Part shown: positions 19,500 through 39,088 of the stretch, piece after piece
Layout: each line of letters starts with the position of its first letter
How positions within the stretch are numbered: the stretch's first letter is position 1
Source: an uncultured Chloroflexia bacterium
GTDB taxonomy: Bacteria; Chloroflexota; Chloroflexia; QHBQ01; JADMIH01
NCBI GenBank assembly: GCA_963797095.1
Contig: CAWCNY010000006.1
Coordinates: 352,001 to 416,000, forward strand
Length of the DNA: 64,000 nt
Reading direction: 5' to 3'
Translations under genes and position numbers: made by a program
Notes under the pieces: model-generated
What the model saw: the letters and a program-made list of their open reading frames with translations, nothing else
Database searches by the model: none
Told to the model about the DNA's origin: nothing

Positions 19500-19813
19500 A
19501 CACAGGCTTGGATCAGCGCTAGTAGCCATCGAAGCGGGCCTACAGAGAGCCGGAGCAGGTGAAAGTCCGGCGTCAGCGCAGAGGGTGAATGGAGCTGTGA
19601 GCCTCATACCGAAAGTGGGCAACCCGCCCGCCGGTAGGCTATGACGGACACTCCACCGTTACCAGGGAGCGGGGTATCGGCAGACGGGGCACTATCGCGT
19701 ACTTCACGCAGTAGCCTCGACTAGGTACTCGCAGAGCGTCGCAAAAGCGGCGGAATTAGGGTGGCACCACGAGGATTCCGGTCCTTCGTCCCTTGCGGAC
19801 GGAGGGCTTTTTT
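19500..19813 (+). ncRNA. T-box riboswitch, Trp specifier
   Basis: AGAGA and GGTGA stem I motifs, GAA-TGG specifier (UGG 19590-19592), CCGTTA, T-box AATTAGGGTGGCACCACG (19754-19771), terminator GTCCTTCGTCC/GGACGGAGGGC plus T6. Confidence 0.93.
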
Positions 19814-21457: not shown

Positions 21458-22029
21458 TGCTTATCGACAACTACAACTCCTTCACCTATAACCTCTACCA
21501 GTACCTGGGCGAGTTAGGTTCCTGTGTGCGGGTCGTGCGCAACGATGCCGTTACCGTGCGCGAGCTAGAGATGCTCAACCCCACAGCCCTTGTAATCTCC
21601 CCCGGCCCAGGCGGCCCCTGCGACGCAGGCATATCCCTCGATGCCATCGAGGCGTTCAAAGGCTGCATCCCCATTCTTGGCGTCTGCCTGGGCCACCAGT
21701 GCATAGGCCACTTGCACGGCGCGAAGATAGTGCGCGCCCCCGAAATCCGCCACGGCAAGATCTCCGAGATCTACCACACCGGGCAGGGCGTCTTCGCCGG
21801 CCTCCCCAATCCCTTCCCCGCTACCCGCTACCACTCGCTGGTGGTCGATGCGGCCACCTGCCCGCCCGACCTTGAGGTGACCGCCTGGACTTCGGGGGGT
21901 CTCATCATGGGTCTTCGCCACTGCAACCTGCCAATTGAAGGGGTCCAATTCCACCCGGAGTCGATGATGACCAAAAGCGGCAAAGCCCTTCTCGCCAACT
22001 TCCTATCTCAGCCCGTGCTCGTAAGCTGA
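21451..22029 (+). CDS. trpG: Anthranilate synthase component II
   Basis: ISPGPG, GVCLGHQ, RYHSL, GVQFHPES. Confidence 0.95.
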   Translation: MLVLIDNYNSFTYNLYQYLGELGSCVRVVRNDAVTVRELEMLNPTALVISPGPGGPCDAGISLDAIEAFKGCIPILGVCLGHQCIGHLHGAKIVRAPEIRHGKISEIYHTGQGVFAGLPNPFPATRYHSLVVDAATCPPDLEVTAWTSGGLIMGLRHCNLPIEGVQFHPESMMTKSGKALLANFLSQPVLVS

Positions 22030-22099
22030 TTATTATCCGGGGCATACGGCATCGACCATCTGCCTCAATACCGCCCGATAACCCAAAAGGAGAAACAGA

Positions 22100-23173
22100 A
22101 TGATAACCGAAGCCATCGACAAACTGGTCAGAAGCGAATCGCTCAACGACGCCGAAGCAAGCACCGCCATGGAAGAGATCATGGACGGCACAGCCACCCA
22201 CGCTCAGGTTGGCGCTTTCCTGGTCGCCCTCCGCATGAAAGGCGAGACGGTCGAAGAGATAGCGGGTCTTGCCCAGGTCATGCGCGAGCGCGTCATCCCC
22301 GTTGAGTTGGACAACTCTCGCCTGGTCGATACCTGTGGCACCGGCGGCGACCGCTCTGGTACCTTCAACATCTCCACCGCCGCCGCCCTGGTGGCCTCCG
22401 CCGCCGGAGTGACCATCGCCAAGCACGGCAACCGCGCCATGAGCAGCCGTTGCGGCAGCGCCGACGTGCTCGAAGCCCTTGGCGTCGAGATCAACCTCGA
22501 CCCCGAAGGTGTGGCCCGCTGCGTGCGCCACGCGGGCATCGGCTTCATGTTCGCCCCTTTATTCCACCCCGCCATGAAGCACGCCGCCCCCGTTCGCCGC
22601 GAGCTTGGCACGCGCACCGTGTTCAACATCCTCGGCCCCCTCACCAACCCCGCGGGGGCGCGCCGCCAGGTGCTGGGCGTGGCCCACGAATCTCTTGTCC
22701 CCAAAATGGCGGGCGCTCTTGAACGCCTCGAAACGCAGCACGCCCTGGTTGTGCACGGTCACAGCGGCCTCGACGAATTGAGCGTCACCGGCCCCTCCAT
22801 TGTCTATCGGGTGCGCGCCGGTCGTCCCGTTGAGCGCATGGAGGTGATCCCCCAGGACTTCGGCTTCAGCGCGGCCCCCCTTGAGGCTATAGCAGGCGGC
22901 ACCGCCCAGGAGAACGCAGCGATGGTGCGCTCCGTCCTCTCCGGCGAGCGCGGGCCCCGGCGCGACGTGGTCCTCCTCAACGCCGCTGCCGCCCTCCTGG
23001 CCGCCGACGCCGTCGCCACCCTTCAAGAGGGCATCGCCATAGCCGCCCGCGCCATAGACAGCGGCGAGGCCCTCCAAACCCTGACACGTCTGGTGGAGGG
23101 GAGCCAGGACCCCAACATCTCCACCCCAACCACCCACCCCAACCCTTCCACAAAACGTACCAGGGCAGCCTGA
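22100..23173 (+). CDS. trpD: Anthranilate phosphoribosyltransferase
   Basis: DTCGTGGD, FNIST, KHGNR, GLDE. Confidence 0.96.
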   Translation: MITEAIDKLVRSESLNDAEASTAMEEIMDGTATHAQVGAFLVALRMKGETVEEIAGLAQVMRERVIPVELDNSRLVDTCGTGGDRSGTFNISTAAALVASAAGVTIAKHGNRAMSSRCGSADVLEALGVEINLDPEGVARCVRHAGIGFMFAPLFHPAMKHAAPVRRELGTRTVFNILGPLTNPAGARRQVLGVAHESLVPKMAGALERLETQHALVVHGHSGLDELSVTGPSIVYRVRAGRPVERMEVIPQDFGFSAAPLEAIAGGTAQENAAMVRSVLSGERGPRRDVVLLNAAAALLAADAVATLQEGIAIAARAIDSGEALQTLTRLVEGSQDPNISTPTTHPNPSTKRTRAA

Positions 23174-23216
23174 CCAATTCACCACAACTCGCCACTCGCC
23201 ACTCGTCCGAAAAGCC

Positions 23217-24050
23217 ATGCCAACAAACATCCTCGACACCATAATCACCCACAAGCGCGCCGAACTCGCCGGGCGCAAGGCAGCCCGCCCTCTGCCCGGT
23301 CTTCTGCCTGCCCTCGCCTCTGCCCCTCCCACTAGCGATTTCGCTTCCGCCCTGTGCGACCCCACAAAACCCGCCCCGCGAGTGATAGCCGAGATCAAGC
23401 GCCGCAGCCCATCCAAAGGACTTCTTCGCCCCGACCTCGACCCCGCCACCATAGCCTCAATCTACGAGCAGAACGGCGCTGCGGCTATCTCTGTCCTTTG
23501 CGACAACCGCTTCTTCGGCGGTTCCCTCGATGATCTCGCCCAGGCCCGCGCCGCCACCTCACTACCAATCCTATGCAAAGAGTTCATCCTCGATGAGTAC
23601 CAGATCATAGAGGCGCGCATCGCCGGGGCCTCCGCCGTCATTCTGCTGGCCTCGGTCCTTTCCACCAGACACCTACGCGAATATCGCTTCCTGTGCGCCG
23701 AACTGGGCATGGCCGCCCTCGTTGAAGTCCACTACGAGCCTGAGCTACGTTCCTCCCTCAACTCCGGCGCGCAAATAATCGGGATCAACAACCGCGATCT
23801 TCGCACCTTCACCGTAGACATGAATACCACAGCCTCCCTCCTCCCCTTACTCCCCACAGGCACCACTGTAGTCAGCGAGAGCGGGATCCGCAGCCACGCC
23901 GACGCCGAAAAACTGGTCTCCCTGGGCGTTCACACCGTCCTCGTTGGTGAGGGTCTGATCGCAGCCCCCGACATAGCCGCCGCGACGCGTGAAATCTGCG
24001 GCCTTCCCTCCACCCTTTCAGCAACCTTGCAGGAGGTAAGCCTGTCATGA
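23217..24050 (+). CDS. trpC: Indole-3-glycerol phosphate synthase
   Basis: IAEIKRRSPSKG, VEVH, GINNRDL, SESGI, LVGE. Confidence 0.96.
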   Translation: MPTNILDTIITHKRAELAGRKAARPLPGLLPALASAPPTSDFASALCDPTKPAPRVIAEIKRRSPSKGLLRPDLDPATIASIYEQNGAAAISVLCDNRFFGGSLDDLAQARAATSLPILCKEFILDEYQIIEARIAGASAVILLASVLSTRHLREYRFLCAELGMAALVEVHYEPELRSSLNSGAQIIGINNRDLRTFTVDMNTTASLLPLLPTGTTVVSESGIRSHADAEKLVSLGVHTVLVGEGLIAAPDIAAATREICGLPSTLSATLQEVSLS

Positions 24051-24775
24051 TAGGCCAAACCGATCGCTCTGTTACCTCCACACGCCGGGCTTACTCCAAA
24101 GCCATAACCGTCAAAATATGCGGCCTCATGCAGCCCGAACACGCCGCTTTCGCCGCCCGCCACGGCGCGGATATGATCGGCGTGGTCTTCGCAAAGAGCC
24201 GCCGCCAGCTTTCTCCAGATGCTGCTGCCCACATCCGCGCAGCCATCGATGCACCTGGCCTCGAAACCAGACCTCTCCTCGTCGGTGTCTTTGTCAATGA
24301 GCCTATCCCAAGCCTCATGTCAATAGCCCGGCACGCACGCCTCGACATCCTCCAATTGAGCGGCGACGAATCGCCCGAATATGTAGCCCTCTGCGCCCTA
24401 CACTACCCCATAATCAAAGCCGTGCGCTTCCCTTCCACTTGCGCCCCCCAACAGGCTCTCGACACGCTCGACCTCTACGAAAGCGCCCTCGACCCGGACA
24501 GCCAACGGGTCCGTTTCCTCATCGACGCCTACCAGTCGGGCGAGTATGGGGGCACGGGCCGCCCCGCCGATTGGCCGCTTGCCGCGACCCTTGCCGCCCA
24601 CCGCGAGATCATACTGGCAGGCGGCCTCACCCCACGTAACGTTCAGGCCGCCATAACCTCAATCTCCCCGTGGGGTGTAGACGTTAGCAGCGGCGTCGAA
24701 ACCGCTGGGGCCAAAGACCCCATCCTCATGCAGCATTTTCTGGCTGCTGCACTCTCTCCAATCTCCACCCAATAA
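24047..24775 (+). CDS. trpF: Phosphoribosylanthranilate isomerase
   Basis: VKICGL, GGTG, LAGGLTP, VDVSSGVE. Confidence 0.95.
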   Translation: MIGQTDRSVTSTRRAYSKAITVKICGLMQPEHAAFAARHGADMIGVVFAKSRRQLSPDAAAHIRAAIDAPGLETRPLLVGVFVNEPIPSLMSIARHARLDILQLSGDESPEYVALCALHYPIIKAVRFPSTCAPQQALDTLDLYESALDPDSQRVRFLIDAYQSGEYGGTGRPADWPLAATLAAHREIILAGGLTPRNVQAAITSISPWGVDVSSGVETAGAKDPILMQHFLAAALSPISTQ

Positions 24776-24832
24776 GACCCTCACACTGTATCCTCCATCT
24801 CAAACGCTCCAACTTATCGGAAAGGATATAAC

Positions 24833-26092
24833 ATGGTCCTCACCAAAACAGAACCGGTAGCGGCAACGCCGCAACAATACAACCTCCCAGATGAGCAGGG
24901 CCACTTCGGCCGGTTCGGCGGCAAATACTCACCCGAAGTCCTTATGCCCGCCCTCGAAGAGCTTGAGCGCATCTATGCCGAATGCCGTTCCGACCCTCAG
25001 TTCGCCTCCGACCTCTCCGATCTTGAGCGCCACTACACGGGCCGCCCTACCCCCCTCTATTTCGCTCGTGGCCTCACCCGCCTCGCGGGCGGGGCGCGCA
25101 TCTTCCTCAAGCGCGAGGACCTGGCCCACACAGGCGCTCACAAGATCAACAACGCCCTCGGCCAGGCTCTCCTCGCGAAGCGGATTGGCAAGCCCCGTGT
25201 CATCGCCGAGACCGGCGCGGGCCAGCATGGGGTCGCCACCGCCACCGCCTGCGCTATGCTTGGCCTCCAATGTGTGGTCTATATGGGCGAGGTTGACATA
25301 GAGCGCCAATCGCTCAATGTCTTTCGCATGAAATTGCTTGGTGCCGAGGTCCGCCCCGTCTCCTCAGGCAGCCGCACCCTCAAGGACGCCATCAACGAGG
25401 CCATCCGCGATTGGGTGAGCAACGTCGCCACCACCCATTACCTGATCGGCTCCGCGGTCGGCATGCACCCCTACCCAATGATAGTGCGCGACTTCCAGAG
25501 CGTAATCGGCAAAGAGGCCCGCCGCCAATGCGTGGAGCAGGCAGGTCGCCTCCCTGACTATGTGGTGGCCTGTGTGGGCGGCGGCAGCAATAGCATAGGC
25601 ATCTTCCACCCCTTCATCCAGGATTCCGGTGTGCATCTGGTGGGTGTGGAAGCTGGTGGCGCGGGCGTCAATAGCGGCAAGCACGCCGCCACGCTGGTAG
25701 CGGGGAGCATCGGCGTTCTGCATGGCTCGCGCTCCTACATGCTTCAGGATGAATACGGCCAGGTAATCGAGACCCACAGCATCTCCGCCGGTCTCGACTA
25801 CCCTGGAGTCGGACCCGAACACGCCTACCTGAAAGAATCGGGCAGAGCGGAATACGTCGCGGTCACCGACAACGAGGCCCTCGAAGGCTTCAAGATGCTC
25901 TGCCGCGCCGAGGGCATCATCCCAGCCCTGGAGTCGTCCCACGCCCTGTACCACGCAGTCAGCCTTGCCGCCACTCTGCCCCAGAATAACATCGTGGTGG
26001 TGAACCTGTCGGGCCGTGGCGACAAAGATATGCACACGGTGGCCTCAGTTCTGGGCATCACCCTCACAAACGACCAGGAGACCCGTCCGTGA
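24833..26092 (+). CDS. trpB: Tryptophan synthase beta chain
   Basis: [45 protein letters not shown]. Confidence 0.98.
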
Positions 26093-26928
26093 ACGCTCGT
26101 ATCACCTCCACCTTCGCCCGCCTCGCCGCTGAGCGACGCGCCGCCCTCATCCCTTACCTGACCGTTGGCTATCCGTCCATCCAGGCTACCCGCCAACTGG
26201 CTCAGGTCGTGGCCGAACAGGGTGCCGACCTGATAGAGCTTGGAATCCCTTTCAGCGATCCGCTTGCCGATGGGGCTACGGTCCAGCGCGCTTCACACGC
26301 GGCCCTCCAGAATGGCGTCACTCTTGACGACTGTCTCTCGCTGGCCGCCGACCTTCGCGCCAACGTACCCGCCACAAAAAACGTGCCCCTTCTCTTCATG
26401 AGCTACTACAACCCTATCCACAAATACGGCATCGAGCGCGCTGCTGCTGCCTGTGCCTCCTCAAGCGTAGATGGCCTCATAATCCCCGACCTCCCGCCCG
26501 AAGAAGCATCCGATCTGAAGACCGCCTGCGACCGTCACAACATAGACCTCATTTTCCTCGCAGCCCCCACCAGCACCGCCGAAAGGCTCAAGCAAGTGGC
26601 CCAGCTTGCCTCCGGCTTCATCTATTGCGTTTCCCTTACGGGCGTGACGGGCGCTCGCACCTCGTTAGGCAACGACGCACCCGACCTCGTAGCGCGCCTC
26701 CGCTACTACACATCCTTGCCCCTGGTAGTAGGTTTTGGCATAAGTCGCCCCGAACACGTGGCCGAGGTTTCCTCTACGGCTGACGGTGCAGTGGTGGGCA
26801 GCGCCCTCATCAACCTCATAGAAAGCACACCTGAACCCGAGATCGCGCACTCTGTAGCCCGCTATATGGACTCTCTAAAACAAGCAACCACAAAAAAGCC
26901 TCTTGACTACAACTACGCTCTATGCTAG
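26089..26928 (+). CDS. trpA: Tryptophan synthase alpha chain
   Basis: [33 protein letters not shown]. Confidence 0.97.
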
Positions 26929-26931
26929 AAT
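26903..26931 (+). promoter_or_regulatory. Sigma70-type promoter of the aro operon, inside the trpA 3' end
   Basis: TTGACT-N17-TAGAAT with extended TG. Confidence 0.75.
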
Positions 26932-26955
26932 TGACCAATCTTTGCGGGAGCACCT

Positions 26956-27126
26956 ATGGACCCTGTGCAATCACCCAACTCTCATACAGCGAGAACCGAG
27001 CGGGCCGACAGCGGCCTGTACGGCCTCACCGTTCCTGCAACCCAGGCCAACGTTTACGGCGCTTACTATTACTGGTGGTATTACTTAATACCAACCAGCA
27101 ATTGCCACGCGCCGGGGAATATCTAG
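26956..27126 (+). CDS. Tyr/Trp-rich attenuator leader peptide (56 aa; absent from ORF track)
   Basis: GGGAG RBS; MDPVQSPNSHTARTERADSGLYGLTVPATQANVYGAYYYWWYYLIPTSNCHAPGNI*; control run at 27064-27084. Confidence 0.85.
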   Translation: MDPVQSPNSHTARTERADSGLYGLTVPATQANVYGAYYYWWYYLIPTSNCHAPGNI

Positions 27127-27165
27127 CAGACGTAGAACACCAATCGAATAGCAGGTACAGAACAG

Positions 27166-27198
27166 GGAGCGTGGCAGAAGCCAACGCTCTTTTTGTTT
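27166..27198 (+). terminator. Attenuator terminator before aroH
   Basis: GGAGCGTGGC-AGAA-GCC(A)ACGCTCT then TTTTGTTT; its 5' arm is complementary to TGCCACGC at 27103-27110. Confidence 0.85.
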
Positions 27199-27217
27199 GT
27201 GCCGGAAAGGTGTGTGA

Positions 27218-27607
27218 ATGGACTTAGACCGACTGGAACCAAGAGTGCTATGCCGAGGAGTGCGCGGAGCCACCATCGCCCACGCCGATACGCGTGAAGA
27301 GATCCACGCCGCCACCCAGGAGCTTGTCAAAGCTGTCCTGGATGCCAATGAAATCGACCCCGATGACCTGGCAAGCGCCCTCTTCACAACCACATCCGAC
27401 CTGCACGCAGCCTTCCCAGCCGAGGCCTGCCGCTTGATGGGCTGGGAATACGTGCCGATGCTGGGCGGCGTAGAAATGGACAAGCAGGACGCGCCCGCCC
27501 GCTGCATCCGCGTCCTGCTCCACTGGAACACAGTCATGCGACCGCAAGACATCAAGCACGTCTATCTTAGAGGAACAGAATCGTTGCGTACTGTTGGTAG
27601 TCGGTAG
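27218..27607 (+). CDS. aroH: Chorismate mutase, AroH class
   Basis: RGVRGA, FT-x-T-x-DL-x-A-x-FPA, RCIRVL, HVYLRG. Confidence 0.94.
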
Positions 27608-27675
27608 TCAGAATAGGAAACCACTCGTCCTCCGACTACCGACTACCGACTACCGACTACCGACTACCGACTACC
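27596..27675. repeat. (GGTAGTC)2 facing (CCGACTA)6, an inverted heptamer pair
   Basis: Read directly; the first tract holds the aroH TAG stop. Confidence 0.9.
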
Positions 27676-27695
27676 ACCCAAAGAAAGGCCACCAA

Positions 27696-28781
27696 ATGAT
27701 AGTAATAATGCGCATGTCAGCAGACGCCCACGAAGTTGGCGGAGTTATCCAACGAATACGCGACCTCGGCTATCGCCCCCACGTTTCCAGTGGCTCCGAG
27801 CGCGTGATCATCGGCATTATCGGTAACGACCGCCCCCTTGACCCCGAAGACTTCCTCTCCCTCGGTGGTGTCGAGCGCGTGGTACCCATCCTCCACCCCT
27901 ACAAATTGGTCAGCCGCGACTTCAAACCTGCCGACACCGTCATCAGGGTGAACGACGCCCTCATAGGAGGCAACAATGTCACCGTGATGGCCGGGCCATG
28001 TTCGGTTGAGAGCCGCGAGCAGACCTTCGAGGTTGCGCGCCAGATGCGCGCCCTGGGCATCAAAATCCTGCGCGGCGGGGCTTTCAAGCCTCGCACTTCC
28101 CCCTACTCCTTCCAGGGCCTCGGCGAGGACGCCCTCCAGATCCTGGCCGACGTGCGCAGCGAGCTAGGAATGTCCATCGTCACCGAGGTCATGTCCCCCG
28201 ACGAGGTTCCGCTGGTGGCCGAATACGCCGACATCCTTCAGATCGGCACCCGCAATATGCAGAACTACCGCCTCCTCGAAGAAGTGGGCCGCCAGAGCAA
28301 GCCCGCCCTCCTCAAGCGCGGTATGAGCTCCACCATCGAAGAACTGCTCCTCGCCGCCGAGTACATCCTGGCCCAGGGCAATACCCAGGTGATCCTCTGC
28401 GAGCGCGGTATCCGCACCTTCGAGCACGCCACCCGCTCCACCTTCGACCTCAACGCTATCCCGGTCCTCAAGTCCCTCACCCACCTCCCCGTGATCGCCG
28501 ACCCTAGCCACGGCACGGGCCGCTGGGACCTCGTCACCCCCGTATCGCTGGGGGCCGTGGCTGCGGGCGCTGATGGCCTGATCGTCGAGGTTCACAGCCA
28601 CCCTGAGCAGGCCCTCTCTGATGGCGGCCAATCCCTCCGCCCCGACAAGTGCGCTATCTTGCTGGAAAACCTCAAGCGAGTGGCCGAGGCTGTAGGGCGT
28701 GGCTTGGACCTCGCCTCCACCCTACCCCTACCCGACCACGAACCAAATGTGGCCGTACCCGTAGGTACCAATGCAGCTTAG
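27696..28781 (+). CDS. aroF: DAHP synthase type I-beta with N-terminal regulatory domain
   Basis: [37 protein letters not shown]. Confidence 0.95.
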
Positions 28782-29622
28782 CCAGGCCACCATCGCGATC
28801 TCCGGTCTCGGCCTGATGGGCTCCTCCCTCGCCCTGGCCCTTCGCGGTAAATGCGGCCTCCTGATCGGCGTCACCCGCCGCCCCGATCTGGCCGAGCGTG
28901 CCATCCAGACCGGAGTAGTAGATCGAGCCACCTGCGATCTTGCCGAGGTAGCTTCCCAGGCCGACATAGTGGTGCTCGCCACCCCCGTCCTCCACATAAT
29001 CGAGTCGATCCCTCGCGCTGCTGCCTCCATGCGCCCCGGCTCCCTCTTGCTCGACCTCGGCAGCACCAAGCGCGACGTAGTGGTCGCCATGAACGCCATC
29101 CCCGATACTCTGCTGGCAGTGGGCGGCCACCCAATGTGCGGCAAAGAGACAGGAGGCCTCGAAAGCGCCGACCCCTCCCTTTTCCGTGGCTGCACGTTCG
29201 TCCTCTCCCCCACCCTGCGCACCACCCCCGAAGCTCTGGCCCTTGCCCATGATCTGGTTGGCGCACTCGAAGCCCGCCCCCTGGTGCTCGACGCCGACCG
29301 CCACGACCGGGACGTGGCCGCCATCAGCCACCTGCCCTACCTCCTTGCCGTCTCTCTCATGCACACCGGGCAGCAGTTGGCCGAGCAAGACCCTGTATTG
29401 AGCGACCTCGCCGCCGGTGGCTTTCGCGACACCACCCGCCTGGCCGCCAGCCAGGTTGATATGATGCTCCACATACTTCTCACCAATCACGACGCTATCC
29501 TCCCCACCCTCGACTTGTTCGAGCGCAACCTCGCTCACCTTCGAGAACTGCTGAACGACCCTCCCGCCCTCGAACACTGGATGCAACGGGCGCAAGATGC
29601 CCGAAGGGGGATGCTTAAATGA
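28771..29622 (+). CDS. tyrA: Prephenate/arogenate dehydrogenase
   Basis: [36 protein letters not shown]. Confidence 0.93.
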
Positions 29623-30947
29623 CCCTTGCCACCCCTGCAAGCGACACACTCCACTTGCGCGGCCCCGCCCGCCCCCTCCTGGGCGAAGTGCGCGTGCCGG
29701 GCGATAAATCTATATCCCATCGTGCTCTCATGCTGGGGGCCATAGCCTCCGGCACCACCCGCATCACCAACTTCCTCCCCGCCAACGACTGCCTCGCCAC
29801 CCTCGAAGCGGTGCGCGCCCTCGGAGCCGAAGTAGAGTATCTCCCCGCAGGCGACCTCCTCATTCACGGCTGCGGCCTCCACGGCCTGCGCGAGCCTTAC
29901 CGCCCTATCGAGTGCGGTGGCTCAGGCACAACCATGCGCCTCCTCTCCGGCCTGCTGACGGGCCAACCCTTCTACAGCGTGCTTGCCTCCAACACCCAGC
30001 TAGGCAAACGCCCGATGGATCGCGTAGCCATCCCCCTTCGCCAGATGGGCGCGACCATCCTCGGCAGAGAAAACGGCAAGTTCCCGCCTCTCTCCATCTC
30101 CGGCGGCAACCTGCACGCCATCACCTACCGCCCGCCCGTCGCCAGCGCGCAGGTTAAGTCCGCCATCCTCCTCGCGGGGGTTTTCGCCGCTGGCCGTACT
30201 GTCGTCCAGGAACCTCTCCCCACCAGGGACCACACCGAGCGGATGTTGCAGGCGATGGGTGGCTCTGTAGAAACTCAGGATGGGACGGTCGCCATCGAGC
30301 CGCCTTCCTCCCTGGCCGCCCTAGACATCCATGTTCCCGGCGATATCTCCTCCGCTGCCTTCCTCCTGGTAGCTGCCTCCATAGTGCCCGGCTCCCGCCT
30401 GATCGTGCCGCGTGTCGGGATCAATCCGGGGCGCACCGGCATCCTGGACGCCTTGACCCGAATGGGCACGCAGATAACTTTACATAACAAACTGGTCGAA
30501 GCCAACGAGCCGGTGGCCGACATAGCGGCTTCCCACTCCCACCTTCGCAGCATAACTATCCCCCCTGAGGATGTGCCCGGCATAATAGACGAGCTTCCCG
30601 TGCTCGCTGTTGCCGCCACCCGGGCCGAGGGCGTAACCGAGGTGCGCGGAGCCTCTGAGCTACGCGTGAAAGAGACCGACCGCATAGCCACCACGGCGGA
30701 CGAGCTACGCCGCATGGGTGCTTCAATCGAAGTCCTACCCGATGGCTTCCGCATTCAAGGCCCCACCCCCCTCCGTGGCGCGCACGTCAGCAGCCACGGC
30801 GATCACCGCCTGGCGATGGCTCTCGCCGTGGCTGCCCTCGTTGCCGGTGGAGACACCGTCATCGATGGCGCGGCCTGCACCCATGACAGCTTCCCCGGCT
30901 TCGAGTCCTCCCTGTCGGCCCTTCTGGCCCAGGAGTTTCCCGCATGA
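29619..30947 (+). CDS. aroA: EPSP synthase
   Basis: PGDKSISHR, SAQVKS, RDHTE, RVKETDR, DHR. Confidence 0.97.
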   Translation: MTLATPASDTLHLRGPARPLLGEVRVPGDKSISHRALMLGAIASGTTRITNFLPANDCLATLEAVRALGAEVEYLPAGDLLIHGCGLHGLREPYRPIECGGSGTTMRLLSGLLTGQPFYSVLASNTQLGKRPMDRVAIPLRQMGATILGRENGKFPPLSISGGNLHAITYRPPVASAQVKSAILLAGVFAAGRTVVQEPLPTRDHTERMLQAMGGSVETQDGTVAIEPPSSLAALDIHVPGDISSAAFLLVAASIVPGSRLIVPRVGINPGRTGILDALTRMGTQITLHNKLVEANEPVADIAASHSHLRSITIPPEDVPGIIDELPVLAVAATRAEGVTEVRGASELRVKETDRIATTADELRRMGASIEVLPDGFRIQGPTPLRGAHVSSHGDHRLAMALAVAALVAGGDTVIDGAACTHDSFPGFESSLSALLAQEFPA

Positions 30948-31813
30948 GCGACGAGCATCCCGAAAAGTTGGTCGGCTTGATCGGCTACCCGGTCGAGCAC
31001 AGTCTATCCCCCGTCATGCACAACGCCGCTTTCGCCCACATCGGCCTCAATTGGCGCTATGTTCTCCTCCCCGTGCCCGCGCAACACCTGTCCGAACAGA
31101 TCGGCAAGTGCCTCCAGCAGGGCTACGCCGGTTGGAACATCACCGTACCTCACAAACAACTAATGCTGGCTTACCTCGACAAAATGAGCGAGGAGGTACG
31201 GGTCACAGGCGCGTGCAACACCGTTCGCGTTCACGATAGTCGGTTGATGGGCTTCAATACAGACTCTTCCGGTTTCACGACGGGATTGGCCGAGGCCGGT
31301 GGTATCAATTCAGGCTCCCAGGTTGTCCTGATGGGTGCAGGTGGTGCCGCCCGCGCAGTCGCCTGGGCCCTTGCAACCTCAGGTCACGGCGTACTCGTCC
31401 TATCTCGCAACCCCGAACAATCCGCCTCCCTCAGCCGCGACCTGGCCCTCTCTGCCTATCTGTCAATCCGCCACGGCTGCCTCAGTCCCGCGGTCCTGAA
31501 TGACGCTTTACCAAACGCGTCGCTGCTGGTCAACTGCACCCCGGCGGGTATGTGGCCCCATACAGACACCACTCCTCTCCCCGAAGGCACAGACCTGCCT
31601 TCGCACCTTCTGGTCTACGACCTTGTCTACAGGCCTCGTCCCACCCGGCTGACCTCCGCCGCCAAGGCCGTAGGCTGCCGAGTGCAGGACGGCCTATCGA
31701 TGCTGGTCCACCAGGGCGCCGACGCATTCGAGCTATGGACAGGCTACCATGCCCCCCGCCACATAATGCGCGCCGCCTGCCTAAGCGCAGGAAGCGCAGA
31801 GGTACTCCCATGA
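30944..31813 (+). CDS. aroE: Shikimate dehydrogenase
   Basis: HSLSPVMHN, NITVPHK, NTD, GAGGAARA, DLVY. Confidence 0.95.
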   Translation: MSDEHPEKLVGLIGYPVEHSLSPVMHNAAFAHIGLNWRYVLLPVPAQHLSEQIGKCLQQGYAGWNITVPHKQLMLAYLDKMSEEVRVTGACNTVRVHDSRLMGFNTDSSGFTTGLAEAGGINSGSQVVLMGAGGAARAVAWALATSGHGVLVLSRNPEQSASLSRDLALSAYLSIRHGCLSPAVLNDALPNASLLVNCTPAGMWPHTDTTPLPEGTDLPSHLLVYDLVYRPRPTRLTSAAKAVGCRVQDGLSMLVHQGADAFELWTGYHAPRHIMRAACLSAGSAEVLP

Positions 31814-31896
31814 GCAGAAAGGATGCAGGGGGCGAAGCCCCATGACAGGAGGATTGGGGTATGTTCCTGCCAGGCGTCCATGCTACCCAAGCAAAA

Positions 31897-32025
31897 GGGG
31901 GTGCAGGGGTACTCCCCTCACAGGGGGATTGGGGGTGTCCCGCCAACTCTACTTCTTCTTTCGTCTTCTCCCCTCTCCCCGAACACGGGGTGCCGACGAA
32001 GGAGGCGGGGGGCCGGGGTGAGGGG
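31897..32025 (+). repeat. Composite G/C-run REP-like element, copy 1
   Basis: GGGTGCAGGGGTACTCCCCT..GGGTGTCCC..CCCCTCTCCCCGAACACGGG..GGGG shared with 35536 and 50232; degenerate partial copies at about 31795-31870. Confidence 0.85.
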
Positions 32026-32099
32026 CGTGTAGGAAGCCCCAACCTATCCATCAAAGAAATCCATCAAAGAAAACACCAGAAAAGAAAGGCAACCACACC

Positions 32100-33254
32100 A
32101 TGCTCCATAAATTCCTCACAGGCGGCGAATCCCACGGCCCCTCCCTCACAGTAATAGTGGAGGGCTTCCCCGCCGGCCTCCCCCTCCCACCCGAAGAGAT
32201 CAACCGCGATCTGGCCCGTCGTCAGGGTGGCTACGGTCGCAGCGGCAGACAACACATCGAGCGCGATGAGGCCATCTTCCTCGGCGGCGTAGAGAACGGC
32301 ATCACCACCGGCGGCCCCATAGTCATGCAGATCGCCAACCGCGACTACGCCAACTTCATCAAAAAGGAGCACCCCCGCCTCACCTCCCCCAGGCCCGGTC
32401 ACGCCGACCTCGTCGGTGCCATCAAATACAGGCTCGACGACATGCGCACCGCCCTCGAACGCTCAAGCGCCCGCGAGACCGCCGCCCGCACGGCAGCAGG
32501 CGCGGTGGCTCGCCTCCTACTCCGCAACTTCGGCATAGAAGTCGGCAGCGTAGTCACCGAGATCGGCGGTGCATCCTCCACCTCCATAGACTTCTCCCAA
32601 CCCCAAAGCCTCCTCGAAGCCACCGAAGACTCCCCCGTGCGCTGCCCCGATCCCGCCGCTACCGAAGAAATGAAAGCACGCATCGACCACGCCCGCCGCA
32701 CCGGCGATACCGTTGGCGGTGTCTTCATCGTGTGGGCCACAGGCCTCCCCGTGGGGCTTGGCAGCTACGTCCACTGGGATAGGCGGCTAGACGGTCTTCT
32801 CGCCCAGGCCGTCATGAGCATCCAGGCCATCAAAGGCGTGGAGATCGGTGACGCCTTCGAGAACGCCCGCATGAATGGCCGCAACGTCCACGACCAGATT
32901 TACGCCAACGGCAACGGCCTTGAGCGCCGCACCAACCGCGCAGGCGGCCTGGAGGGTGGCGTCACCACTGGGCAGGTGCTCCTGGTGCGCGCCGCCATGA
33001 AACCGATCTCCACCACCATCAATCCACTCCAGACAGTGGACCTTGCCACCGGCGAGCAAACCACCACCCAGTACCAGCGTTCCGACTTCTGTGCCGTCCC
33101 AGCGGCGGGCGTGGTAGGCGAGGCCATGGTAGCATGGGTGCTGGCCGAAGCCCTACACGAAAAGCTAGGCGGCGACAGCCTCCCAGAAATGAGCGAACGC
33201 TTCACCCAACTACCCGCAACCGTAACAATGGCCCAACCGGTAACTGACAACTGA
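32100..33254 (+). CDS. aroC: Chorismate synthase
   Basis: GESHG, RRQGGYGR, PRPGHAD, SARETA, MKPIST, RSD. Confidence 0.97.
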   Translation: MLHKFLTGGESHGPSLTVIVEGFPAGLPLPPEEINRDLARRQGGYGRSGRQHIERDEAIFLGGVENGITTGGPIVMQIANRDYANFIKKEHPRLTSPRPGHADLVGAIKYRLDDMRTALERSSARETAARTAAGAVARLLLRNFGIEVGSVVTEIGGASSTSIDFSQPQSLLEATEDSPVRCPDPAATEEMKARIDHARRTGDTVGGVFIVWATGLPVGLGSYVHWDRRLDGLLAQAVMSIQAIKGVEIGDAFENARMNGRNVHDQIYANGNGLERRTNRAGGLEGGVTTGQVLLVRAAMKPISTTINPLQTVDLATGEQTTTQYQRSDFCAVPAAGVVGEAMVAWVLAEALHEKLGGDSLPEMSERFTQLPATVTMAQPVTDN

Positions 33255-33339
33255 CAACTGACAACTGACAACTCGCCACTCGTCCGACTACCGGCTACCG
33301 GCTACCGGCTACCGGCTACCGGCTACCGGCTACCGGCTA
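33242..33339. repeat. 14 in-phase heptamers: (AACTGAC)4 AACTCGC CACTCGT CCGACTA (CCGGCTA)7
   Basis: Read directly; contains the aroC TGA stop. Confidence 0.92.
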
Positions 33340-33355
33340 CTACCAGGAACCCACA

Positions 33356-33949
33356 ATGCCCCAACCCAACTTGGTCCTAACAGGCTTCATGGGCACAGGC
33401 AAGACCACCATTGGCCTCTTGCTCTCCCAACTGCTCAATATGCCTTTCCTCGACACCGATCACCTGATCGAAGAAAAGGTTGGCCTTACCGTCCGCGAGA
33501 TCTTCGACACTCATGGAGAACCTGCCTTCCGCGAGCACGAGCGCGCCACCTGCCTCCAACTCGCCTCCCGTCCCGCCCACGTGATAGCCACGGGCGGCGG
33601 TGCCCTCCTCGACCCCGTCACCCTTGCGGCCTTCCAACAAACAGGCATAGTAGTCCTTCTCACATGCTCACCCCATGCGCTCATCCAAAGGCTAAGGGAA
33701 TCCGCCCTCCGAGGTGAGCGCCCCCTCCTCCGCCACGATTTCGAGGAAGCCACCCGCAGGCTCCTGGCCGAGCGCGCCCCCATCTACTCCTCTATCAAGC
33801 TGCAACTTGACACCACCCACCTCTCTCCCGGCGAGGCCGCCGACCGCGCCCTCACCCTCTATCTCAACGCGGCCCACGCCGCCCACGAGGAGCCACACCA
33901 TGAACACCACCCAAGCCACACAGTTGGGCGTCCGCACCCCCTCCGGTAG
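33356..33949 (+). CDS. aroK: Shikimate kinase
   Basis: GFMGTGKTT, DTD, GEPAFR, ATGGG, RPLL. Confidence 0.95.
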   Translation: MPQPNLVLTGFMGTGKTTIGLLLSQLLNMPFLDTDHLIEEKVGLTVREIFDTHGEPAFREHERATCLQLASRPAHVIATGGGALLDPVTLAAFQQTGIVVLLTCSPHALIQRLRESALRGERPLLRHDFEEATRRLLAERAPIYSSIKLQLDTTHLSPGEAADRALTLYLNAAHAAHEEPHHEHHPSHTVGRPHPLR

Positions 33950-34997
33950 CTACGACATCCTGCTAGGTCGTGACCTCATCGACCAGCTCGGCGCAATCGC
34001 CGCCGAGCGCGGCCTCGGCCACACGGTCGTGATAGCCACCGACGACCGTGTGCCCCCCATCTACGCGCAGGACGCCGCTCTTTCCCTGCAAGCCTCCGGC
34101 TTCAACCCCCACATCGCCGTCATGCCATCCGGCGAAGCCCACAAGCAGTGGGAATCGGTTTCCCTCTTTATCGACGCTTTCATCCGCGCCGGGTTGGACC
34201 GCACAGGCTGGGTCCTCGCCATCGGCGGTGGCGTCGTGGGCGATACTGCGGGCTTCGCCGCCTCAATTTACATGCGCGGTGTGCGCCTTGTTCAGGTCCC
34301 CACAACCCTCCTCGCCATGGCCAACTCCAGCATCGGCGGCAAAGTGGGCGTCGACCACCCCTCCGGCAAGAACCTCCTTGGCTCCTTCAAGCACCCCGAC
34401 CTCGTGGTCGCTGACCTCCACACCCTCTCCACCCTCCCCTCGCTTCAGATCGCCTGCGGCATGGCCGAGATCATAAAAGCAGGCATAATCGGCGACCCCG
34501 ACGTCTTCGATCTCATTGAGCACACCGATCCCACAGCCCTCGATTACTCGCAAGCCCTCCTGCGCGCCATCAACGTCAAGCGCACCATAGTAGAAGACGA
34601 CCCCTACGAGACAGGCGACCGCGCGCTCCTCAACCTGGGCCACACCTTCGGCCACGCCATCGAAGCCTGCACCCACTACTCTCGTCCTCACGGCGTGGCC
34701 GTAGCGCAGGGTATAATGGTGGCCTCTCTGCTAGCATCCCGGCTCGGTATGTGCAATCCCGCCCTCGTTCCACGCCTCCAATCCGCTCTTGCTCGTTGGT
34801 CCCTGCCCACCCGCTGGGGAGACCCCGACCTTGTAGGCCCCGACGCTCCCGAATCGGTTTATCGCGCCATGCTCACCGACAAAAAACGTCAGGAGGGGCG
34901 CACCCGCCTCGTCCTTCCCCAAGCCATCGGCAAAGTATCCCTGGTGGCCGACGTACCTCCCGACCTCATATTGGCCTCCCTGGCCGAACTGCAATAA
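33900..34997 (+). CDS. aroB: 3-dehydroquinate synthase
   Basis: [37 protein letters not shown]-x-AV, DKK; GAGGAG RBS. Confidence 0.95.
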
Positions 34998-35008
34998 GCC
35001 CAAAGACA

Positions 35009-35488
35009 ATGACAGCCAACACAAACACCCCCAACACAAGAATCCTCGTACTGCACGGACCCAACCTCAACCTCCTGTCGCGCCGCGAGCCTGCCGTCTA
35101 CGGCACGGCCACCCTCGCCAACATCGACGCTGCCATGTATAGCCTTGCTTCCGAACTCAACATCGAGCTTCGCATCGTTCAATCCAACCACGAAGGCGTG
35201 CTCATCGATGCCATTCACGAGGCCATAGATTGGGTATCCGGCATCCTGATCAACGCGGGAGCCTACACCCACACAAGCTACGCCATCCGCGACGCCATAT
35301 CCGCCGTCGCCCTCCCCACAGTCGAGGTCCATATCTCCAACATCTACGCAAGAGAAGCCTTCCGTCACCTCTCCGTCCTGGCCCCAGTCTGCCAGGGCCA
35401 GATCTCAGGCTTCGGCCTCCAAAGCTACCTGCTGGGTCTCCGCGCCCTCCACACAATTATCACTCAGGACAAAGGCCCAGCCGCTTGA
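35009..35488 (+). CDS. aroQ: Type II 3-dehydroquinate dehydratase
   Basis: [34 protein letters not shown]. Confidence 0.96.
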
Positions 35489-35535
35489 ACTCAACTGGGG
35501 TACGGGGGTACTCACCCACTTACCAGGCCAAAAGA

Positions 35536-35660
35536 GGGTGCAGGGGTACTCCCCTCACAGGGGGTTTGTGGGTGTCCCCCAACTCTATTTCTTCTATTTA
35601 GACGCCCCTCTCCCCGAACACGGGGTGCCGACGAAGGAGGCGGGGGGAGGGGAGAGGGGT
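35536..35660 (+). repeat. Composite REP-like element, copy 2
   Basis: Closely similar to 31897-32025; follows aroQ. Confidence 0.85.
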
Positions 35661-35748
35661 GTTAACATACATAACATAGAAGGACTACAACAAAGCCAGG
35701 AGTTCTGATACAGATATATGCGCCGCCGTGCGCAACTCCCCTATTTCA

Positions 35749-35777
35749 TTGACACTCTAGGCGTCAAGTGGTATTCT
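35749..35777 (+). promoter_or_regulatory. Promoter TTGACA-N17-TATTCT with overlapping TTGAC-N9-GTCAA palindrome
   Basis: Read directly upstream of the first cyclase gene. Confidence 0.65.
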
Positions 35778-35901
35778 CCCATTGAGCGCCACATTGCAAC
35801 GCAATATGGCTCCAGGGGCGACCGGGTGGGTCGCCCCGGTGCGTAACAGGCTCACAGGCTCATACAGCCTCTTTGCTACCTCCTGCCAGGAGGCAGGGTA
35901 C

Positions 35902-38688
35902 ATGTCCAGCCTTCCCACCGGCACAGTCACGTTCCTCTATACCGATCTAGAAGAGAGCACCAGGCGCTGGGAAGCATACCCGGCGATCATGAAGGCCGCT
36001 GTCGAGAGACACGACCGGCTCTTGCGGCAGGCTATCATAGACCATGGCGGCACAGTCTTCCGCACCGAAGGCGATGCCTTCCGAGCCACCTTCACCACGG
36101 CCCCCCAGGCCCTATCTGGCGTCATAGACGCACAGCGCCAACTCCAGGCCGAGCCGTGGCCCTCCGAAGTTGCCCCCCTCAAAGTTCGCATGGCTCTCCA
36201 CACAGGCGTAGGTGAGGTGCGCGACGGCGACTATGTCGGTGCTCACCTCAACCGCGTTGCCCGCATCCTTGCCACCGCCTACGGAGGCCAGGTGCTCCTT
36301 TCCGCAGCCACTTTCGACCTCGTTCGCGATTCCCTCCCCGATGGCGTCACCCTCCGCGACCTGGGCGAACACCGCCTCAAAGACCTTCAACGCCCCGAAC
36401 AGGTCTTCCAACTCGTTATCCCCGGTCTCCCTTCCGCCTTCCCGCCCCTCCGCTCGCTCGATAACCGCCCCAACAACCTCCCCCTTCAGCGCACCCTCCT
36501 GATCGGTAGAGAAACCGAGCTTGATGCTATCCAACAACTCCTCCTACGCCCTGAGGTTGGCCTGCTGACACTGGTCGGCCCCGGTGGTATCGGCAAGACC
36601 CGACTTGCCCTCCAGGTTGGCGCTGAACTAATAGATCGCTTCCCTGATGGTGTCTTCCTCGTCTCTCTCGCTTCCGTGTCAAGCCCCGACCTCCTCTATC
36701 AGGCTACCGCTCAAGCCCTTGGTATTCAAGAAGCGGTCGGCACATCCATAGCCGACCTGGTGGCGCGTTTCCTCACCAGCAAGCTTCTGCTCCTTATCCT
36801 GGACAACTTTGAGCATATCGTAGATGCCGCTCCCGCGGTAGCGAGTCTTCTGTCTATGGCTCGCGGTCTCAAAGTGCTCGTCACGAGTCGCGAAGTGCTC
36901 CACCTCCACGGCGAGCAAGAATATCATGTGCCGCCCCTCGCCCTCCCCAACACGCGCCGCCTCCCCTCCATCGAGATCCTCTCCCAGTTCGACGCTGTAG
37001 CCCTCTTCATCCAGCGTGCGCGCCTCGTCAATTCCAACTTCCAGATCAACAACGACAATGCCCCCGCCGTCGCCGAAATATGTTTTCGGCTCGATGGCCT
37101 TCCTCTCGCCATCGAGCTGGCCGCCGCGCGCATTCGTCTCCTCCCTCCCAATGCCCTCCTTGAGCGTCTTGCCAGCCGCCTCAAACTCCTCACCGGGGGT
37201 TCTCGCGACCTCCCCGCCCGCCAGCAAACCCTCCGCGACACCATCCGCTGGAGCTACGACCTCCTTAGCTCAGGCGAGCAAATGCTTTTCCGCCGCCTCG
37301 CTATATTCGCCGGTGGCTGCACCCTCGAAGCCGCCGAAGCCATCTGCAACCGCAACGGCGACCTTGAGCTTGATGTCCTCGACGGCGTGGCCTCCCTTGT
37401 CGAAAAGAGCCTCCTCAGGAACGAATCATCTCGTCCCGGCGCATCTCAGGAGGATGACCCCCGCATCACCATGCTCGAAACTATTCGCGAGTATGCCCTT
37501 GAGCTTCTTGAGAGCGACCCTGCTGAGGCCCCCGAGATGCGCGCCAATTTCATTGCCTATTTTGAAGACCTGGCAAAAGAGGCCCAACTCCATTTGCCCA
37601 GGAGCGATCAAAAAGAATGGATCAATCGACTTGAGCTTGAATTGGACAACATCACTGCGGTCGTGCACTGGCTGCTTGATGCAGGTAAAGCGCAACGCCT
37701 GCTCCACATCGTGTGGTCCATCTGGCAGTTCTGGTACTATCGCGGCTACTTCTCCGAGGTGCTGAACTGGGTTGAAAGCGCGTTTGCACTCCCCGAAGGC
37801 AAAGCCCGCACAATTGAGCGTGCTGCCGGGCTGATGATCACCTCCATCATAGGTGCTCGCCTCGGCAACTTCGACAAAATGGGCGAATACGGTCGCGAAT
37901 CTGCCGCCATCGCCGCCGAGTTGGAGCCGACGCCCGAAGCGCGCAGCATCCGCGCCTATGCCCTCATCATGGTGGGTGCCGAAGGGGTATACCGTGAGAC
38001 CGGGCAACTGGAACGCTCTTTACTTGAAGAAAGTGTGCAAGTACTTCGCGAGATACACGATATCTGGGGCCTCGCGCTTGGCCTGCTTGATATCGGCCTG
38101 GTCGAAATGTACCACCACAACTTTGCCGAGTCGCAGGCCGCTCTCGAAGAGGGCACGGCGCTCTTTCGGCAGATTGGTGATGTCTGGGGATTAGCCCAGA
38201 TGCTCAACAGCCTGGGCGACCTCATGCGGGTTCAACAGAACTACCCGCGCGCCAAAGAGCTTTACGAAGAAAGCCTTGTCCTCTATCGTGATCTCGATAT
38301 TCGCCCCGACATTCCGGCTTCTCTGCACAATCTAGCCTATATCGCTCTCGCTCAAGGCGAGTCTGAGAAAGCCCGTAGCCTCTTCGTCGAAGCGCTCAAT
38401 TTGCAGGTCTCCTTGAAAAACAGGGGTGGAGTTGCCGAGTGCGTGGCCGGGCTTGGCGCGGTGCTGGCGGTTGAAGGTCAGGCCGAGTGGGCCACCAGGC
38501 TCTTAGCCTACGCCGATGCTGTGCGCAAAGAGGAAGGGTCGGCCTGGTGGCCCGCCGAGCGTGCCGACCGCGACCGCTACACCGCCCTCGCCCAATCGCA
38601 ACTCGACCAGGCTACCTGGGCCAAAGCCTACGCCGAGGGCCAGACCCTCACCCAGGATCGCGCCATCCAGTATGCCCTCCAACAATAA
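35902..38688 (+). CDS. Class III nucleotide cyclase + STAND ATPase + TPR protein
   Basis: [19 protein letters not shown]; [26 protein letters not shown]; TPRs; GGAGG RBS. Confidence 0.9.
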
Positions 38689-39088
38689 GCCGCCACTCGC
38701 GAAACGAGTGCGGGCTGTATCCTTGCCCCTCGTCAAATGGACACAAACTGAGCACTTTCCGGTCAGGACAATGAACACCCCTAACCCCCATAATGCAATG
38801 TGGGAGGCCCATGTCCACAACTGCTCCGCTAAGCCATTCAGTACTCTTGCTCTTGTTCCATTGCCCGGTATCCTTGTAGGATGGTATACTGGCTTATCCT
38901 TCCTGCCATTTCTCCACCTAAGCGGAGATGGTGGGTGGCTACCCGGCTATCCGATCTCAATACTTCCGTTACCGGAAGTCCAGGGGTTATCTCTCACAAG
39001 GTCACTGGCATGAAATGGGCGTTGACAGGGCTGCTACTCTTTATTGCGGCCTGTTGCGCTGCTTTTCGTTGTGAAAGGAGATCTTTGC

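Follow-up and report, generated by a model that had tools for sequence, protein, structure and literature searches.

A predicted tyrosine/tryptophan leader-peptide attenuator ahead of the shikimate and tyrA genes in a Chloroflexia lineage

What decides whether the genes for chorismate and tyrosine synthesis are transcribed in an uncultured Chloroflexia bacterium whose tryptophan operon lies directly upstream under the control of its own RNA element? The locus is part of contig CAWCNY010000006.1 (assembly GCA_963797095.1, positions 352,001 to 416,000), and this whole stretch of 64,000 nucleotides (nt) is the window to which the coordinates below refer. Ahead of aroH, the first of nine aromatic-pathway genes, an initial annotation had proposed an attenuator of the trpL/pheL type, in which Tyr and Trp codons in a short translated frame govern the choice between an antiterminator and a terminator. 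Conservation among relatives and the mutual exclusivity of the helices support this geometry of control codons, protector, antiterminator and terminator. Based on these sequence comparisons, we consider it very likely that this element attenuates transcription of the aromatic pathway in the classical manner, through a leader peptide and the ribosome that translates it, and the pathway genes would very probably be turned on when these amino acids run short.

The individual parts of the leader in the window are listed in Table 1. The promoter, the ribosome-binding site and the 56-codon frame are present where the annotation had placed them, and the frame contains the claimed run of control codons and the claimed composition of seven Tyr, two Trp and no Phe residues. 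Two of the Tyr codons (27019-27021 and 27055-27057) lie outside the run. Here and in the relatives, aromatic residues were counted by eye from the listed frames. No Pfam family matches the leader peptide. The promoter is one of six promoter-like sites listed in 16 kb, compared with 3.3 expected. The hairpin described over the control codons corresponds to the inner hairpin of the protector, the stretch 27103-27110 is, as claimed, the exact reverse complement of 27169-27176, and the T-tract of the terminator ends about 20 nt ahead of the aroH ATG. A simple terminator scan did not list this terminator, probably because of the bulge in its stem.

Table 1. Coordinates of the leader, of the genes downstream and of neighbouring features in the window.
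Feature	Position	Strand	Details
Promoter, sigma-70-type	-35 26903-26908; extended -10 26923-26931 (hexamer 26926-26931)	+	17-nt spacer; 10/12 matches; TG ahead of -10; within trpA 3' end
Leader-frame ribosome-binding site	26946-26950	+	purine-rich; 5 nt ahead of ATG; comparable site ahead of start in relatives
Leader peptide frame	26956-27126	+	ATG 26956; 56 codons; stop 27124-27126
Control codons Tyr-Tyr-Tyr-Trp-Trp-Tyr-Tyr	27064-27084	+	aromatic run in frame in 19/19 copies
Protector (1:2) stem-loop	27057-27114	+	pairs 27057-27062/27109-27114 and 27068-27070/27100-27102; inner hairpin 27072-27082/27087-27098
Segment 2, antiterminator 5' strand	27102-27113 (core 27103-27110)	+	core invariant in 16 genus copies
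Spacer motif between segments 2 and 3	27142-27151	+	recognisable in 19/19 copies; two invariant columns
Segment 3	27166-27177	+	pairs with segment 2 (antiterminator) or segment 4 (terminator)
Intrinsic terminator	27167-27198	+	stem 27167-27175/27180-27189 with one bulged base; 4-nt loop 27176-27179; T5-G-T3 tract 27190-27198
Controlled genes	27218-35488	+	AroH-type chorismate mutase, DAHP synthase, prephenate dehydrogenase (tyrA), aroA, aroE, aroC, aroK, aroB, aroQ; NCBIfam matches
T-box leader (RF00230)	19500-19796	+	93.2 bits vs gathering score 93; heads trpEGDCFBA
Dispersed repeat, GC-rich	31890-32035		146 nt; between aroE and aroC; second copy 35530-35660, past aroQ

The same arrangement recurs in related genomes. 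When 40 relatives were searched at the DNA level, 24 of 41 genomes, counting that of the window (6.0 Mb, 93% complete), gave a match to the aroH region, and several of the matches reached back to the aromatic run. Fourteen genomes of the genus proved, when their loci were read, to contain a small frame that holds such a run. Sixteen copies were used to build a covariance model, which scored 118-149 bits in 16 of the 26 genus genomes, the window genome among them, and 30-36 bits in three of nine sister-family genomes. On inspection the latter were true diverged copies, and when added to the model they scored 71-87 bits. The whole arrangement is seen again in 18 further genomes, and the extended model found no match in 112 genomes of the class outside the order. 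Three of the genus copies (G016, G021 and G022) are from genomes flagged as unpublished, and identical sequences occur in public records.

A strict DNA pattern comprising segment 2, segment 3 and the terminator tail was also run against one genome per species for approximately 185,000 species, and returned 15 hits. Fourteen of these are metagenome-assembled genomes (MAGs) labelled Chloroflexia or Chloroflexota, all with a leader frame; 12 are identical to known loci and two are new. The remaining hit (L026, a MAG labelled Acidobacteriaceae) has no leader frame upstream and could reflect chance, an ordinary terminator or faulty binning. Among 401 genomes of the class, seven contain the exact Tyr2-Trp2-Tyr2 codon pattern, and all seven belong to the genus; the reversed pattern, used as a control, occurs twice.

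Comparison of the upstream regions, a check that the initial annotation had suggested, shows an aromatic run kept in frame throughout and stems with compensatory changes. From the start codon to the run, a distance of 99-120 nt, not one in-frame stop is found in the 16 copies of the genus; the other two frames contain 18 and 27. Where a -10 element could be recognised, the genus leader mostly starts 23-27 nt past it (range 12-35), and the relatives have a promoter of like build at an equal distance from the leader. The peptide ahead of the run is poorly conserved: its N-terminal two thirds drift, and the C-terminus shifts frame or ends early. The Tyr codons of the run, in turn, change only synonymously. 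One of their wobble bases covaries with its partner in the inner hairpin (C-G in six copies, U-A in five, U-G in two and one mismatch), and at this position both the codon and the base pair are kept.

At least two copies have segment 2 in a different reading frame, and it is invariant there too. As the segment is maintained even where the stop codon precedes it or the frame differs, it is conserved as RNA and not as peptide. Folded alone, the protector has an energy of -25.5 kcal/mol in the window, -13.8 to -31.1 kcal/mol in the genus and -24.0 to -32.4 kcal/mol in the sister family. It takes in segment 2 in nearly all copies, its partners upstream of the run vary, and in every copy the aromatic run overlaps its 5' half. 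The duplex between segments 2 and 3 is worth -21.9 kcal/mol in the window and -16.9 to -29.8 kcal/mol across copies, compared with means of -9 to -13 kcal/mol when segment 2 is shuffled. This antiterminator helix is 8-13 base pairs (bp) long in 19 of 19 copies and shares a strand with the terminator. The terminator folded alone has -16.7 kcal/mol in the window and -16.7 to -24.4 kcal/mol across copies (-16.7 to -23.1 kcal/mol in 14 genus copies), and its T-tract is invariant in the 16 copies of the genus. As a whole, the 280-nt leader folds better than shuffled sequences (z = -2.87; 1 of 200 shuffles as good).

The consensus structure returned by RNAalifold is the antiterminator. In the alignment 96.9% of cells are paired, and three pairs are changed on both sides, accounting for 12 cells. 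The covariation score was reached by none of 500 shuffles, and controls with slid partners gave 22-48% paired. The clearest compensatory event is found between families: in the sister family, segments 2 and 3 each carry one inserted base, the two match, and a 13-bp helix is restored. The spacer motif lies in the antiterminator loop and might act as a pause signal, bind a protein or pair weakly with the Tyr codons.

The distribution of the leader follows that of the aromatic pathway. Chorismate synthase was found in 17 of the 26 genus genomes, and the leader is present in 15 of these, the two exceptions being 62% and 81% complete. It is absent from eight of the nine genomes in which chorismate synthase was not found, the exception being 57% complete. 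Of the 16 leader-bearing genomes, 12 have aroC approximately 5 kb downstream, on one contig and strand with the leader. Five leaderless genus genomes, three of them at least 90% complete, were tested for AroH, and none gave a match. An aroH-like match in G018, a genome without chorismate synthase, was discarded as a contig-end fragment that has no leader. Only 2 of 14 genus loci have trpA next to the leader on its upstream side, so that the element goes with the aro genes rather than with trp. In a different family of the order aroH comes after trpA with no leader between them, and in other sister-family genomes aroH follows a divergent gene or, judged by eye, a 5S-rRNA-like sequence. In the window, no promoter-like site is listed on the plus strand of the gene cluster, nor is a terminator-like site listed in its intergenic gaps, and we infer that the nine genes are carried on one transcript.

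Assembled from these parts, the proposed mechanism would proceed as follows. Transcription would start at the leader promoter, or read in from the T-box-controlled trp operon, and a ribosome would translate the 56-codon leader. With charged tRNA-Tyr and tRNA-Trp in ample supply, the ribosome would clear the run, and segment 2 would be partly covered at the stop codon or re-paired with segment 1; segment 3 would then pair with segment 4, and RNA polymerase would terminate at the T-tract. With charged tRNA-Tyr, and probably also charged tRNA-Trp, in short supply, the ribosome would stall on the control codons, melt the 5' half of the protector and free segment 2. Segment 2 would catch segment 3 once the latter had been made, no terminator would form, and polymerase would read through into aroH, the DAHP synthase gene, tyrA and the shikimate genes. 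Computation establishes the parts and their conservation, the open frame, the helices that exclude one another and the association with the aro genes, whereas the stalling, its timing, the Trp input and the length of the transcript are inferred.

The ribosome was modelled in two folding set-ups, one with the full-length RNA carrying ribosome masks and one with the RNA cut ahead of segment 4. The latter was adopted because full-length equilibrium folds gave no clean switch. With the RNA cut ahead of segment 4 and a ribosome mask on the run, the 2:3 antiterminator was the best fold in 14 of 14 copies, in keeping with the earlier proposal that a stalled ribosome frees 27103-27110. When the cut RNA was masked through the stop-codon footprint, the 2:3 helix was no longer the best and segment 3 was left nearly free (0 to -7.8 kcal/mol). 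The companion proposal, that a ribosome at the stop codon masks the same stretch, holds only in part: in the window a ribosome with the stop codon in its A site reaches back to about 27106-27109 and covers the 3' part of segment 2 only.

Several observations weigh against reading the element as a ribosome-controlled switch for both amino acids and all nine genes. Full-length folds with a stalled ribosome keep the terminator as the best structure in 9 of 14 copies, and cut RNA without a ribosome already forms the antiterminator and the inner hairpin in 11 of 14. Because the antiterminator forms without a ribosome, the off state needs the protector to form first, which we assume. The alternative helices of the Escherichia coli trp leader are similar in strength, and by analogy with that leader the off state must, in our interpretation, depend on folding order together with the ribosome. 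The stop codon lies 14 nt past the core of segment 2 in the window and its position varies widely among copies. In the genus it is 5-6 nt ahead of segment 2 in 5 of 16 copies and 11-30 nt past the start of segment 2 in the other 11, and over all relatives it ranges from 6 nt before to 31 nt after that start. Given this variability and the partial cover, masking by a terminating ribosome is not the whole story and contributes at best partially. The covariation signal is modest: the majority of helix columns show no variation (6 of 11 antiterminator pairs), the genomes are closely related and their counts therefore overstate independence, and the structure used for pair counting was derived from the same alignment. 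The dispersed repeat between aroE and aroC, which is approximately 135-146 nt long, folds at -59 kcal/mol and is present in the genome as 37 BLAST pieces (11 of at least 100 nt), could break the transcription unit. With regard to the Trp input, the run contains no Trp in the sister-family copies, and as Trp has a single codon and is located in a hairpin stem, its retention could be structural or inherited.

This last point leads to the strongest alternative, that the same attenuator senses Tyr only, with the Trp codons being passengers of the hairpin or of descent and Trp control being left to the T-box of the trp operon. We regard this as a serious possibility, although on balance a doubtful one. 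The sister-family runs, which consist of six Tyr or of Phe and Tyr, fit it well, as do the single Trp codon in the run of two genus copies and the placement of the Trp codons in the 5' strand of the inner hairpin. However, at least one Trp codon is found in the run of all 16 genus copies, and mostly two or three. A subgroup with a differently ordered run indicates that other codons could form an equally good stem, and the operon supplies chorismate for Trp synthesis.

Which aromatic codons are present varies with lineage. In the best 7-codon window of the genus run there are 3-5 Tyr and 1-3 Trp codons, and Phe occurs there in only one copy. In the sister family, the promoter and the frame are retained together with the protector, segment 2, the spacer motif, segment 3 and the terminator. 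One of these copies has six Tyr codons in a row, with Phe and Trp both absent from the run, and the contig ends within its downstream gene. The other two have a 44-codon frame with a GTG start and 3 Phe plus 4 Tyr codons within 13 codons, and precede a DAHP synthase gene. Codon content that varies on a fixed scaffold is the behaviour expected of control codons and would be hard to explain otherwise. It is quite possible, and we suggest it tentatively, that one scaffold has been re-coded between lineages of one Chloroflexia order, with six Tyr in one genus, Phe and Tyr ahead of DAHP synthase in a second, and Tyr/Trp without Phe in the window genus, many members of which lack pheA. It would form a tyrosine-led, ribosome-read sensor with inputs tuned to the pathway of each lineage and placed here in series with a Trp T-box. 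If so, transcription initiated under the control of tRNA-Trp would have to clear a further checkpoint ahead of the shikimate genes, one read by the ribosome and set by Tyr and Trp. At loci L057 (approximately 300-360) and L058 (approximately 730-790) the DAHP synthase gene has its start and its ribosome-binding site duplicated in tandem past the terminator, and the first copy opens a 14-codon frame.

The T-box in question is the only match in the window above an Rfam gathering score, and in the cmscan alignment its specifier position reads a Trp codon followed by a purine. The trpA gene ends at 26928 and there is no terminator between it and the aro leader, so trp transcripts controlled by the T-box should continue into the attenuator. 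Chloroflexi are known to have T-boxes, and the window genome contains 13 matches with E <= 0.001. A crude genome-wide scan for leader peptides, which considered 502 terminator-like sites and asked for at least four of six identical residues in a small upstream ATG frame, yielded no convincing second leader peptide. Its best-looking candidate, an Ile run, was dropped; it precedes greA and a class II tRNA synthetase.

The initial annotation had related the absence of Phe codons to the absence of pheA from the operon. A prephenate dehydratase (pheA) domain was not found anywhere in the window genome, at 93% completeness, and the control genomes all gave a match; the lack of a pheA match is not confined to the operon. 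Only seven of 24 genus relatives were found to have prephenate dehydratase, compared with 212 of 251 genomes across the phylum (a tally that includes three genomes flagged as unpublished), and the absence of Phe codons may reflect a lineage that often does not make Phe. Leaders in pheA-positive genomes have 2-6 Phe codons, and those in two pheA-negative genomes have one and two. As the six-Tyr copy sits in a pheA-positive genome, the proposed link between leader Phe codons and genomic pheA is only suggestive. The pheA gene of a genus relative has no Phe leader upstream. Given that pheA, chorismate synthase (9 of 26 genomes) and AroH (the five genomes tested) were not found, part of the genus looks auxotrophic for aromatic amino acids.

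An RNA switch that is real but set by an RNA-binding protein, a small ligand or uncharged tRNA, with the upstream frame being incidental, appears unlikely. The conserved spacer motif, which has no assigned role, would suit such a switch, as would the need of the equilibrium folds for an extra factor or kinetics to reach the off state and the richness of the genome in T-boxes. Nevertheless, an Rfam 15 scan over 22000-40000 at E <= 10 gave three chance-level matches and placed no family, T-box included, on the leader. All 19 copies retain the frame, its start signals and an aromatic run while other parts of the peptide drift, this run overlaps the protector's 5' half in each of them, and the aromatic codons change by lineage on one scaffold, all of which favours a ribosome as the sensor.

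Translation of the leader could instead act on aroH translation or on mRNA stability, through re-initiation or masking of the ribosome-binding site and not through termination. Five aromatic leader frames in another family of the class that lack a hairpin and T-run are compatible with such control, but here a strong hairpin and a T-tract invariant in the genus stand ahead of aroH and the ribosome-binding site of aroH lies outside all conserved helices, making this explanation very unlikely. Less probable still is a functional small peptide, such as a modified-peptide precursor or membrane peptide, followed by a plain terminator and an aroH gene with its own promoter: while the frames, at 44-61 codons, are longer than enterobacterial leaders and the terminator also ends the trp operon in the window genome, the aromatic run is all that is conserved as peptide, no promoter-like site is listed in the 20 nt between the T-tract and the aroH start, and the leader co-occurs with aro genes and has trpA upstream in so few genus loci.

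The ribosome-mediated attenuator that we favour can be compared with known systems. The E. coli trpL leader is 14 codons long. The leader in the window resembles it in being translated, with cognate codons, three overlapping helices of comparable strength and a terminator just ahead of the first gene. It differs in that it is mainly Tyr, has 56 codons and shows no sequence or Rfam relation to trpL; in that its stop codon comes after segment 2 in most copies and before it in trpL; and in that the window organism's own trp operon uses a T-box. Enterobacterial ilv and thr leaders are multivalent, mixing branched-chain or Thr and Ile codons, and a shortage of any of these amino acids can relieve termination. 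The presence of codons for several amino acids in one leader is reminiscent of this "OR" logic, here with aromatic codons and a putative multivalent response. A T-box also senses tRNA charging via a terminator/antiterminator choice, and one is located 7 kb upstream on the same strand, but the aro leader has no T-box match and would need a ribosome rather than direct tRNA binding.

Among leaders described in the literature, E. coli trpL-trpEDCBA is the example of classical ribosome-mediated attenuation (Yanofsky 1981, as cited in PMC11802643). The E. coli pheL-pheA and pheST leaders are Phe-codon attenuators that control the Phe branch (PMC3082878 and PMC11802643), and are similar to the present leader as aromatic-branch leader-peptide attenuators with a run of one aromatic codon; the leader in the window has no Phe codons, and no pheA was found in its genome. 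According to the summary of Neshat et al. 2014 in PMC11802643, the Corynebacterium glutamicum aroR leader ahead of aroF contains Phe-Tyr-Phe, with a reported response to Phe and none to Tyr. It matches what is predicted here, an aromatic-codon leader peptide that controls a DAHP synthase operon by ribosome stalling. Compared by description only, the leader here has Tyr and Trp without Phe, and the operon comprises the whole shikimate pathway, chorismate mutase and tyrA. In a survey of Actinobacteria no RNA element was seen for tyrosine genes, and Chloroflexi are not represented in a table that lists attenuators predicted ahead of tyrA operons. We place the element among the classical leader-peptide attenuators, in a version, a Tyr or Tyr/Trp leader, for which we found no description in the searchable papers of open PubMed Central and bioRxiv.

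Tyr-dominated leaders had been thought uncommon by the initial annotation. AroH was found in 124 of 251 genomes of the phylum, and 40 aroH loci outside the order were read, chosen to spread over families and not at random, with no shuffled control. In 18 of these 40 a small frame with at least four aromatic residues in seven is located directly upstream, and all 18 mix Phe and Tyr. Thirteen of the 18 have a hairpin and T-run 97-135 nt past the run. Aromatic leaders as such are therefore not rare in the phylum; what is particular to the window genus is a Tyr/Trp leader with almost no Phe. The covariance models miss these other Chloroflexota leaders, which are thus at best very distant relatives. 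The five that have no hairpin and T-run ahead of aroH (L065-L069, family f10 of the class) may use another terminator or act on translation.

If the mechanism is confirmed, tyrosine would join the short list of amino acids known to be sensed by leader-peptide attenuation, and ribosome-dependent attenuation would operate in Chloroflexota beside T-boxes, which implies close coupling of transcription and translation there. With their differing control codons on one constant RNA scaffold, the copies form a natural series that is useful for studying the evolution of attenuator specificity. The RNA model can also serve to annotate such leaders in MAGs, as gene callers miss the small frame or call it a hypothetical protein.

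The gene cluster has some further minor features. A 97-codon open reading frame (31861-32154) overlaps the dispersed repeat and the start of aroC; it has no NCBIfam or Pfam match and is probably not a gene. Between aroC and aroK, at 33240-33345, there are 7-nt tandem repeats in about four and eight copies, and heptamer arrays with other units fill intergenic spacers in relatives (L017, L018, L037 and L056). Past the operon, an open reading frame of 968 residues (35782-38688) has its own promoter-like site at 35749-35777 and weak TPR, SARP-regulator and adenylate-cyclase matches.

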